A stretch of DNA of 5,041 bases from a virus (Duplodnaviria > Heunggongvirae > Uroviricota > Caudoviricetes): the IMG/VR virus record IMGVR_UViG_2690316066_000008. One strand, given 5' to 3'. Positions 1 to 5,041 of this stretch are shown here, in pieces; positions within the stretch are counted from its first letter, which is position 1, and every line of letters starts with the position of its first letter. The position numbers were made by a program, and so were the translations under genes. The notes under the pieces were generated by a model. It was not told the origin of the DNA and made no database searches. It saw only the letters and a program-made list of their open reading frames with translations.

Positions 1-2920
<2,920 letters not shown>

Positions 2921-2946
<26 letters not shown>

Positions 2947-3466
2947 TCAGCAACCCCGGTATCAGTTCATCCAGCGCGGCTGCTTTGTTCATGGCTTTGA
3001 TGATATCCCGTTTCAGGAAATCAACATGTCGGTTTTCCAGTTCCGGAAAACGCCGCTGCACCGACAGGGGGATCCCGTCGAGAATACTGGCAATTTCACC
3101 TGCGATCCGCGACAGCACGAAAGAACAGAATGCGGTTTCCACCACTTCAGCGGAGTCTCTGGCATTTTTCAGCTCCTGTGCGTCGGCCTGCGCACGCGTA
3201 AGTCGATGGCGTTCGTACTCAATAGTCCCTGGCTGGAGATCTGTCTCGCTGGCCTGTCGCAGTTCTTCAACCTCCCGGCGCAGCTTTTCGTTCTCAATTT
3301 TAGCATCCCTTTCGGCATACCATTTTATGACGGCGGCAGAGTCATAAAGCACCTCATTACCCTTCCCACCGCCTCGCAGAACGGGCATTCCCTGCTCCTG
3401 CCAGTTCTGAATGGTACGGATACTCGCGCCGAAAATGTCAGCCAGCTGCTTTTTGTTGACTTCCAT
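2921..3466 (-). CDS. Nu1: Terminase small subunit gpNu1 (181 aa; N-terminal winged-HTH that binds cosB R-sites)
   Basis: 181-aa ORF starting MEVNKKQLADIFGASIRTIQNWQEQGMPVLRGGGKGNEVLYDSAAVIKWYAERDA, recognised as lambda Nu1. Its 3' end overlaps the A start by 26 nt (2921-2946) in a different frame, as in lambda. It sits immediately downstream (on the minus strand) of the cosB repeats. Confidence 0.96.
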
Positions 3467-3487
3467 TGTTCATTCCACGGACAAAAA

Positions 3488-3605
3488 CAGAGAAAGGAAA
3501 CGACAGAAGCCAAAAAGCCCGTTTTCAGCACCTGTCGTTTCCTTTCTTTTTAGAGGGTGTTTTAAATAAAAACATTAAGTTACGACGAAGAAGAACGGAA
3601 ACACC
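3488..3605. promoter_or_regulatory. cosB: terminase (Nu1) binding region with R1, R2, R3 elements and an AT-rich spacer at the expected IHF (I1) position
   Basis: R1 at 3491-3506 (agaaaggaaacgacag) and R2 at 3532-3547 (ctgtcgtttcctttct) form a perfect 16-bp inverted repeat. A third related GGAAAC-containing copy (R3) lies at about 3590-3605 (agaacggaaacacc). The AT-rich segment 3551-3586 separates R3 from R2. Arrangement and sequence match lambda cosB as I recall it. Confidence 0.85.
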
Positions 3606-3643
3606 TTAAACCGGAAAATTTTCATAAATAGCGAAAACCCGCG

Positions 3644-3655
3644 AGGTCGCCGCCC
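3644..3655. other. cosN: the 12-nt cohesive-end sequence, present here in joined (uncut) form
   Basis: Plus strand reads aggtcgccgccc, i.e. GGGCGGCGACCT on the minus strand, the lambda cohesive end. It is followed by cgtaacctgtcggatc, the reverse complement of the lambda right-terminal sequence. Nu1 starts 188 nt away at 3466. Confidence 0.88.
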
Positions 3656-3678
3656 CGTAACCTGTCGGATCGCCGGAA

Positions 3679-3685
3679 AGGACCC
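3679..3685. promoter_or_regulatory. cosQ-like element (packaging-termination signal)
   Basis: aggaccc on the plus strand equals GGGTCCT on the minus strand, ending 23 nt from the right cohesive-end junction. This matches my recollection of the cosQ heptamer and its spacing; not independently verifiable here. Confidence 0.55.
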
Positions 3686-3854
3686 GCAAAATGATAATAA
3701 TTATCATCTACATGTCACAACGTGCATCTACGCCATCAAACCACGTCAAATAATCAATTATGACGCAGGTATCGTATTAATTGATCCGCATCAACTTAAC
3801 GTAAAAACAACTTCAGACAATACAAATCAGCGACACTGAATACGGGGCAACCTC

Positions 3855-4049
3855 ATGTCAACGAAGAACAGAACCCGCAGAACAACAACCCGCAACATCC
3901 GCTTTCCTAACCAAATGATTGAACAAATTAACATCGCTCTTGATCAAAAAGGGTCCGGGAATTTCTCAGCCTGGGTCATTGAAGCCTGCCGTCGGAGGCT
4001 AACGTCAGAAAAGAGAGCATATACATCAATTAAAAGTGATGAAGAATGA
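3855..4049 (+). CDS. ylcI: Small basic protein with predicted ribbon-helix-helix (Arc/MetJ-like) DNA-binding fold; ylcI-like (DUF3950-type) accessory ORF
   Basis: 64-aa ORF with ATG at 3855 and a weak GGGG Shine-Dalgarno-like run at 3844-3847. The segment TRNIRFPNQMIEQINIALDQKGSGNFSAWVIEACRRRL has the RHH pattern: alternating polar/hydrophobic beta-strand (N-I-R-F-P, compare Arc F-N-L-R-W-P), helix A, G-x-S/N turn, helix B. Size, position (between ybcW-like and cos) and opposite orientation match ylcI of E. coli prophage DLP12 as I recall it. Symbol assigned from memory. Confidence 0.6.
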   Translation: MSTKNRTRRTTTRNIRFPNQMIEQINIALDQKGSGNFSAWVIEACRRRLTSEKRAYTSIKSDEE

Positions 4050-4142
4050 ACATCCCGCGTTCTTCCCTCCGAACAGGACGATATTGTAAATTCACTTAAT
4101 TACGAGGGCATTGCAGTAATTGAGTTGCAGTTTTACCACTTT

Positions 4143-4180
4143 CCTGACAGTGACAGACTGCGTGTTGGCTCTGTCACAGG
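4143..4180. repeat. Imperfect hairpin / hexamer-repeat cluster (TGACAG x2 direct, CTGTCA x1 inverted) between convergent ylcI-like and ybcW-like genes
   Basis: cctgacagtgacaga-ctgcgtgttggc-tctgtcacagg. The segment 4150-4157 (gtgacaga) pairs with 4170-4177 (tctgtcac) as an 8-bp stem with a 12-nt loop. The outer cctg/cagg can extend the stem with a bulge. No clear U-tract on either strand. Confidence 0.4.
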
Positions 4181-4213
4181 TTAAGTAGTTTGAATGATTA
4201 GCAGTTATGGTGA

Positions 4214-4420
4214 TCAGTCAACCACCAGGGAATAATCCTTCATATTATTATCGTGCTTCACCAACGCTGCCTCAATTGCCCTGAATGCTTCCAGAGACAC
4301 CTTATGTTCTATACATGCAATTACAACATCAGGGTAACTCATAGAAATGGTGCTATTAAGCATATTTTTTACACGAATCAGATCCACGGAGGGATCATCA
4401 GCAGATTGTTCTTTATTCAT
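4214..4420 (-). CDS. ybcW: Small hypothetical protein (68 aa), ybcW / lambda lambdap79-like
   Basis: [71 protein letters not shown] with GGAG Shine-Dalgarno 7 nt upstream of the ATG at 4420 (minus-strand reading GGAGCGACAAAATG). Position relative to cos matches the 68-aa ORF I recall near the lambda right end. No recognisable functional motif. Symbol assigned from memory. Confidence 0.6.
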
Positions 4421-4468
4421 TTTGTCGCTCCATGCGCTTGCTCTTCATCTAGCGGTTAAAATATTACT

Positions 4469-4494
4469 TCAAATCTTTCTGTATGAAGATTTGA
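4469..4494 (-). terminator. Candidate weak stem-loop upstream of ybcW-like on the minus strand (9-bp AU-rich stem, 8-nt loop, followed by AGUAAUAUUUUAA)
   Basis: tcaaatctt (4469-4477) pairs with aagatttga (4486-4494). On the minus strand the hairpin is followed by a moderately U-rich tract. The stem has only 2 G:C pairs, so terminator function is doubtful; it could equally be a 5'-UTR structure or a protein-binding site. Confidence 0.25.
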
Positions 4495-4582
4495 GCACGT
4501 TGGCCTTACATACATCTGTCGGTTGTATTTCCCTCCAGAATGCCAGCAGGACCGCACTTTGTTACGCAACCAATACTATTAA

Positions 4583-4867
4583 TTGAAAACATTCCTAATA
4601 TTTGACATAAATCATCAACAAAACACAAAGAGGTCAGACCAGATTGAAACGATAAAAACGATAATGCAAACTACGCGCCCTCGTATCACATGGAAGGTTT
4701 TACCAATGGCTCAGGTTGCCATTTTTAAAGAAATATTCGATCAAGTGCGAAAAGATTTAAACTGTGAATTGTTTTATTCTGAACTAAAACGTCACAATGT
4801 CTCACATTATATTTACTATCTAGCCACAGATAATATTCACATTGTGTTAGAAAACGATAACACTGTG
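4583..4867 (+). pseudogene. ybcV: ybcV / lambdap78-like hypothetical protein (DUF1398-type, as I recall), 5' portion only, truncated by IS1 insertion
   Basis: The plus-strand ORF reads ...[69 protein letters not shown], then crosses the IS1 terminus at 4868 and stops after 26 IS1-derived codons at 4946-4948. The start is ambiguous: TTG at 4583 (longest ORF) or ATG at 4664, with AAGAGG at 4628-4633. A possible sigma70-like promoter is TTGAAA (4583-4588) / CATAAA (4606-4611). Symbol assigned from memory. Confidence 0.6.
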
Positions 4868-5041
4868 GGTAATGACTCCAACTTATTGATAGTGTTTTAT
4901 GTTCAGATAATGCCCGATGACTTTGTCATGCAGCTCCACCGATTTTGAGAACGACAGCGACTTCCGTCCCAGCCGTGCCAGGTGCTGCCTCAGATTCAGG
5001 TTATGCCGCTCAATTCGCTGCGTATATCGCTTGCTGATTAC
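4868..5041 (-). mobile_element. IS1 insertion sequence, right end (partial; about 174 of ~768 bp, continuing beyond the window)
   Basis: From 4868 the sequence is the reverse complement of the IS1 right end. The terminal inverted repeat ggtaatgactccaacttattgat is at 4868-4890, followed by sequence encoding the InsB C-terminus on the minus strand. The junction with phage DNA is at 4867/4868 (+/- 1 nt). Confidence 0.93.
4883..5041 (-). CDS. insB: IS1 transposase InsB (InsAB') C-terminal portion (partial, 5' end outside window)
   Basis: Minus-strand translation reads ...[52 protein letters not shown] with stop TAA at 4885-4883 (complement of tta), 15 nt inside the IS1 terminus. Recognised as the IS1 InsB C-terminus. 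Confidence 0.88.

Follow-up and report, generated by a model that had tools for sequence, protein, structure and literature searches.

IS1A insertion in the ybcV gene beside cos of a lambda-like Escherichia coli prophage

Gene content of the window and the disrupted gene

The DNA described here (hereafter the window) is a stretch of 5,041 nucleotides from a tailed-phage record of IMG/VR (IMGVR_UViG_2690316066_000008; Caudoviricetes). An exact-protein look-up identified it as the entire contig CDRY01000326.1 (5041 bp) of draft assembly GCA_001373235.1, and both ends of the window are contig ends. An ORF listing and family scans showed that positions 1-4867 represent a lambda-type packaging region in reverse reading, extending from portal gene B through W, terminase A, Nu1, cos, a ylcI-like gene and ybcW to the 5' part of ybcV. 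The features of this phage part are as follows.

1-821, minus strand: portal gene B, 5' part, cut by the left end of the contig (gene call on contig L010, with Phage_portal_2)
818-1024, minus strand: head-tail joining protein W (ORF; gpW Pfam match on the gene call)
1021-2946, minus strand: terminase large subunit A, 641 aa (ORF; GpA_ATPase and GpA_nuclease domains on an identical product)
2921-3466, minus strand: terminase small subunit Nu1 (Pfam Phage_Nu1, E=4e-100)
3644-3655, minus strand: cosN cohesive-end 12-mer GGGCGGCGACCT, read straight from the sequence
3855-4049, plus strand: ylcI/ynfO-like gene (DUF3950), 64 aa, intact (Pfam DUF3950, E=5.4e-20; called ylcI in annotated relatives)
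4214-4420, minus strand: ybcW (lambdap79-like), 68 aa, intact (YbcW annotation in identical and near-identical records)
4706-4867, plus strand: ybcV (DUF1398) 5' fragment, 54 of 136 codons (Pfam DUF1398, E=3.4e-16, profile positions 1-50 of 119)

The 12-mer at 3644-3655 is the lambda cohesive end, and the Nu1 and A terminase genes adjoin it, as in a lambda-type cos packaging module. The left end of the window inside portal gene B is presumably due to another lambdoid prophage of the same genome with shared sequence. An Rfam scan of the window returned no match. The DUF3950 gene (YlcI/YnfO family) has cos on one side and ybcW on the other and runs against the direction of late transcription, and in lambda its counterpart is annotated as hypothetical only.

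Among complete genomes, the closest relative of the phage part is a prophage of E. coli O111:H21 strain 15A (NZ_CP077477.1), which is 100% identical over 1-4867; the next best complete genome reaches 99.0%. In strain 15A, ybcV is intact (136 aa) and is followed by bor, Rz and the lysis genes. The same prophage has a tRNA-Thr gene between Q and the holin gene (locus L008, 15750-15825), outside the region that corresponds to the window.

The ybcV fragment belongs to the DUF1398 / YbcV-YdfO family (PF07166), with a score of 59.8 bits against a cut-off of 22; with profile positions 1-50 of 119 covered and 54 of 136 codons left, the domain is not full-length. Two starts are in use for this gene. 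The lambda annotation of lambdap78/YbcV, in the same frame, begins at 4583, and this is the start that had been given in an earlier note on this DNA, made from the letters alone. PGAP and the gene calls of the collection begin at 4706, which gives the 136-aa protein. Intact YbcV matches the NMR structure of E. coli YdfO (PDB 2HH8) at E=1.6e-70, and a literature search on ybcV and DUF1398 found no functional study. Database entries for this family include a 94-aa DUF1398 protein, sharing 90% identity with the E. coli prophage gene, which is labelled Staphylococcus aureus (on a 4.4-kb contig) and is probably a case of contamination or mislabelling. They also include dozens of noisy, near-identical DUF1398 variants on ENA contigs of about 3.5 kb that look like the product of error-prone reads.

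The IS1 junction and the target-site duplication

The last part of the window, together with its boundary to ybcV, holds the features below.

4706-4948, plus strand: chimeric ORF of 80 aa, made of 54 YbcV residues and 26 residues from IS1 antisense (translation; stop at 4946-4948)
4859-4867, no strand: target site AACACTGTG, left copy of the 9-bp target-site duplication (reciprocal junction on scaffold L012)
4868-5041, minus strand: right end of IS1 (174 bp, next to IRR), matching the opening 174 bp of the full-length 768-bp IS1A in E. coli NCTC9104 at 174/174 bases; the element continues past the window
4868-4890, no strand: terminal inverted repeat of IS1 (IRR), GGTAATGACTCCAACTTATTGAT, the same as in complete IS1A, with 18 of 23 positions matching IRL as an inverted repeat
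4883-5041, minus strand: 3' end of insB, comprising the final 52 codons and a TAA stop at 4883-4885 (gene call on contig L010; Pfam DDE_Tnp_IS1, E=6.7e-27, profile positions 80-131 of 131)

The break between phage and IS1 sequence lies exactly at 4867/4868. All lambda-like phage matches end at 4867, and the first difference between the window and the 100%-identical empty-site prophage is position 4868. The inverted repeat, which has the length (about 23 bp) and the GGTRATG... form of the IS1 family, begins exactly at this junction, and behind it an IS1-type DDE transposase (InsB) reads toward IRR on the minus strand. The earlier note had proposed that a plus-strand phage ORF is cut at 4867/4868 by the IS1 inverted repeat; the ends of the phage matches, the empty-site comparison and the 174/174 identity to IS1A all bear this out. 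With 31.5% GC, the insertion site falls in the stretch of the window that is richest in A and T, and AT-rich targets are preferred by IS1.

Reading across the junction, the exact chimeric product with the 4706 start is on record for three contigs only, and exact-protein look-ups found no record of the versions with the 4664 and 4583 starts. The chimeric 80-aa ORF is almost certainly non-functional. The truncation itself suggests that ybcV is inactivated and YbcV function lost. At a distance of 1212 bp from cosN, the insertion site is well clear of cos, and ybcW, ylcI, Nu1 and A have all stayed intact.

Of the 768 bp of IS1, 174 are visible here; the window stops at this point because a short-read contig broke in a multicopy repeat. 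The identical junction is present in two further assemblies (GCA_000939035.1 and GCA_969827725.1; contigs L009 and L011), which match the window at each of the 2951 bases compared and both end inside IS1, L011 at the very base of IS1 where the window stops. Short-read assemblers are expected to stop at a multicopy IS, and the recurrence of the junction in these assemblies excludes a one-off chimera. A search for the exact junction pattern gave 0 matches in GTDB representative genomes, IMG/VR and JGI metagenomes, and a look-up of terminase A returned only contexts without the IS1 insertion of the window.

What should stand on the other side of the element can be predicted from the empty site. 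In a simple insertion, the phage side beyond the IS1 left end would read ...AACACTGTGTTAATAAAAGG, and the expected right-hand junction sequence is GCAGCATCACCAACACTGTGTTAATAAAAGG. Written out by parts, the predicted reciprocal junction is ...GCAGCATCACC / AACACTGTG / TTAATAAAAGG..., and its longest ORF, of 83 aa, starts at a GTG inside the duplication. A cluster look-up showed that this predicted 83-aa ybcV remnant is present in the protein collection; a homology search returned no exact 83-aa representative.

The predicted junction was found on a metagenome scaffold of 638 bp from another sample (L012; ENA ERZ28566022), the only place where the left end of the element was seen. This scaffold opens with 54 bp of IS1 left end, free of mismatches to IS1A. 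Next comes AACACTGTG, followed by what is left of ybcV, the intergenic region and the first part of bor. Its phage part begins at the equivalent of window position 4859 and shows 0 mismatches in 584 bases to the empty site of strain 15A. The 9-mer AACACTGTG occurs once in the empty site, stands beside IRR at 4859-4867 in the window and stands again beside IRL on the scaffold. This is a direct target duplication of the 8-9 bp kind made by IS1, and its two junctions were seen in separate samples of one prophage lineage. Because the reciprocal junction carries the 9-bp duplication and matches the empty site without a single mismatch, the simple insertion with duplication of 4859-4867 is real for this prophage lineage. 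The rest of ybcV and the duplication, which the earlier note had suggested looking for beyond IS1, were thereby found in a different sample. That note had also placed the duplication correctly at 4859-4867, but the string it quoted, acactgtgg, is that of 4860-4868 and takes in the opening G of IS1; the correct 9-mer is AACACTGTG. A pattern search for the reciprocal junction gave 0 matches in the genome and metagenome scans. We infer that the right-hand half is still present in the window's own genome.

State of the prophage and orientation of IS1

An in-frame TAA interrupts the major capsid gene E at codon 233 in the IS1-bearing contig L009 (1792-2817, minus strand) as well as in the empty-site prophage of strain 15A (L008, 4497-5522, minus strand), and PGAP notes an 'internal stop' for this gene. 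Other prophages with the same terminase encode the full 341-aa E. Since gene E lies outside the window, the capsid stop is assigned to the window's prophage from its identical relatives. Judged from these sequences, the prophage was probably already defective before the IS1 insertion or independently of it. Because the TAA is found in the lineage with or without IS1, the insertion is better explained by neutral decay than by a regulatory role, and its effect was presumably neutral.

The insAB genes are on the minus strand, the same strand as ybcW, Nu1 and A, and they are co-oriented with the holin, lysozyme and Rz genes as well. This puts IS1 within the lambda late transcription unit, in the sense orientation. 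Its direction here is that of lambda late transcription, on a strand already transcribed by the Q-dependent late operon. The orientation had been read correctly in the earlier note; with insB on the minus strand, transcription from IS1 would proceed toward ybcW, cos and Nu1/A. Because Q-modified polymerase is not stopped by terminators, IS1 would be expected to cause little polarity on the head genes. The suggestion of a hybrid promoter at the IS1 end, made at the same time, found no support in the sequence. The best -35/-10 pair across the junction, TTGGAG-16-TATCGT, scores 7/12, and a consensus promoter scan found no site spanning the junction.

An independent insertion in this gene was found in a DLP12-type prophage of E. 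coli NCTC9104 (NZ_LR134152.1; L001, 6656-7423), where a complete 768-bp IS1A lies in ybcV with a 9-bp duplication, ACTATACCT. An IS1 right end joined to the ybcV region in the same orientation was seen in 3 of 5426 complete genomes; there is therefore no sign of strong recurrent selection. Two further apparent ybcV::IS1 cases in Qin-like prophages were rejected, because IS1 is beside and not inside the DUF1398 gene. In the Qin-like prophages of strains PI24 and 190 (L013, 3662-4359; L014, 3451-4148), IS1 lies just downstream of the DUF1398 gene. The neighbouring gnsB-family gene of strain 190 is annotated with 135 nt only and has possibly been truncated by IS1.

Interpretation and comparison with known systems

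Taken together, these analyses suggest, with a probability of about 0.85, that a standard IS1A inserted itself at codon 54/55 of the ybcV gene carried by a lambda-like E. coli prophage, with a 9-bp duplication and as part of the neutral decay of an already defective prophage. According to this reading, IS1A would have entered ybcV, an accessory DUF1398 gene that is antisense to the late operon and lies between bor/lysis and cos, and the 9-bp target AACACTGTG would have been duplicated on insertion. A stub of 54 codons plus 26 IS1-derived codons would have been left, inactivating ybcV. The event would then represent neutral decay at an AT-rich, IS1-favoured site of a prophage that the capsid E TAA had probably made defective already. 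The earlier note regarded the element as a secondary insertion in a ybcV/lambdap78-like gene between the lysis genes and cos, and the uninterrupted allele in lambda and in the 100%-identical prophage agrees with that view.

Two other readings question whether the junction represents a simple insertion in the window's own genome. It is unlikely that IS1 marks the boundary of a rearrangement there (an adjacent deletion, an inversion or recombination between IS1 copies), so that bor, the lysis genes and what is left of ybcV no longer lie beyond it. Such a reading would fit a contig that ends inside IS1 and has its far side outside the contig. It would also fit the absence of the 83-aa remnant from the records of all three NCBI assemblies with the left junction, as well as the lack of either junction pattern in all large collections scanned. 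However, DNA that is 100% identical to the lineage does carry the exact reciprocal junction, complete with a perfect 9-bp duplication, and a missing gene call is weak evidence in fragmented assemblies, where lambdoid sequence is repeated and contigs with the right junction may have been dropped as too short. The chance that the junction is an assembly chimera, with the end of a phage contig joined to an unrelated IS1 read, is practically negligible. The junction is indeed near a contig end in a short-read draft assembly, but it falls exactly on the first base of the IS1 inverted repeat, it is identical in three separate assemblies, and the reciprocal junction with the expected 9-bp duplication exists.

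Other readings accept the insertion and give it a function. We regard it as very unlikely that IS1 acts as a mobile promoter, with an internal or hybrid promoter driving ybcW, the cos-proximal sequences and the terminase genes. The orientation fits this proposal, insAB and ybcW/Nu1/A all being on the minus strand, but the best pair at the junction (7/12) and the promoter scan without a site argue against it. Further, the strand is already served by the Q-dependent late operon, which is established lambda biology, and in a lineage with a nonsense codon in capsid gene E more terminase would give no phage. The IS1 inverted repeat does have an outward -35 box, and a hybrid promoter is possible where a correctly spaced -10 box follows; activation by the IS1 -35 is nevertheless seen only if the -10 box is optimally placed (PMC8764528). 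Very improbable, too, is an induction-driven burst of IS1 transposase expression or a selected loss of the DUF1398 protein in lysogens. This proposal is based on the sense position of IS1 in a Q-antiterminated unit and on ybcV having been struck twice independently in the same orientation, in this lineage and in NCTC9104.

For the preferred reading, neutral insertion of IS1A into ybcV, the kind of event is already known as routine IS-mediated erosion of a cryptic lambdoid prophage. It serves as a reminder that short-read contigs end in IS copies. The exact junction can be used as a lineage marker, since only three assemblies with it are on record and its reciprocal is on one metagenome scaffold. 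The insertion also provides a natural knockout of the uncharacterised DUF1398 gene ybcV, for which strain 15A is the isogenic empty-site comparator.

The element itself resembles IS1 of E. coli (IS1A isoform) in all of its 174 bases, in its inverted repeat, in the C-terminus of insB, in the 9-bp duplication and in its AT-rich target; no distinguishing difference was seen in the right-hand 174 bp that lie inside the window. The IS1 hybrid promoter upstream of afaA in E. coli ST131 is similar in having an outward-facing IS1 end beside a host or phage gene, but it has a well-spaced -10 box, in contrast to the 7/12 pair and the scan without a match at the junction described here (PMC8764528). The ybcV::IS1 allele of NCTC9104 shares the gene family, the IS1, its orientation and the length of the duplication. 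It is, however, a separate event about 190 bp deeper in the gene, in a far more degraded prophage with a truncated terminase. Phage lambda shares the gene order lambdap78/YbcV - lambdap79/YbcW - cos - Nu1 - A - W - B and 98.2% DNA identity over 1-4867, but it lacks IS1, and at the matching position (...GATAACACCGTG / TTAATAAAAGG) its gene runs on without a break. The prophage of strain 15A comes closest, having the same phage sequence throughout and the same TAA stop in capsid gene E as the IS1-bearing contig, and it differs in its empty site, where an intact ybcV is followed by bor.
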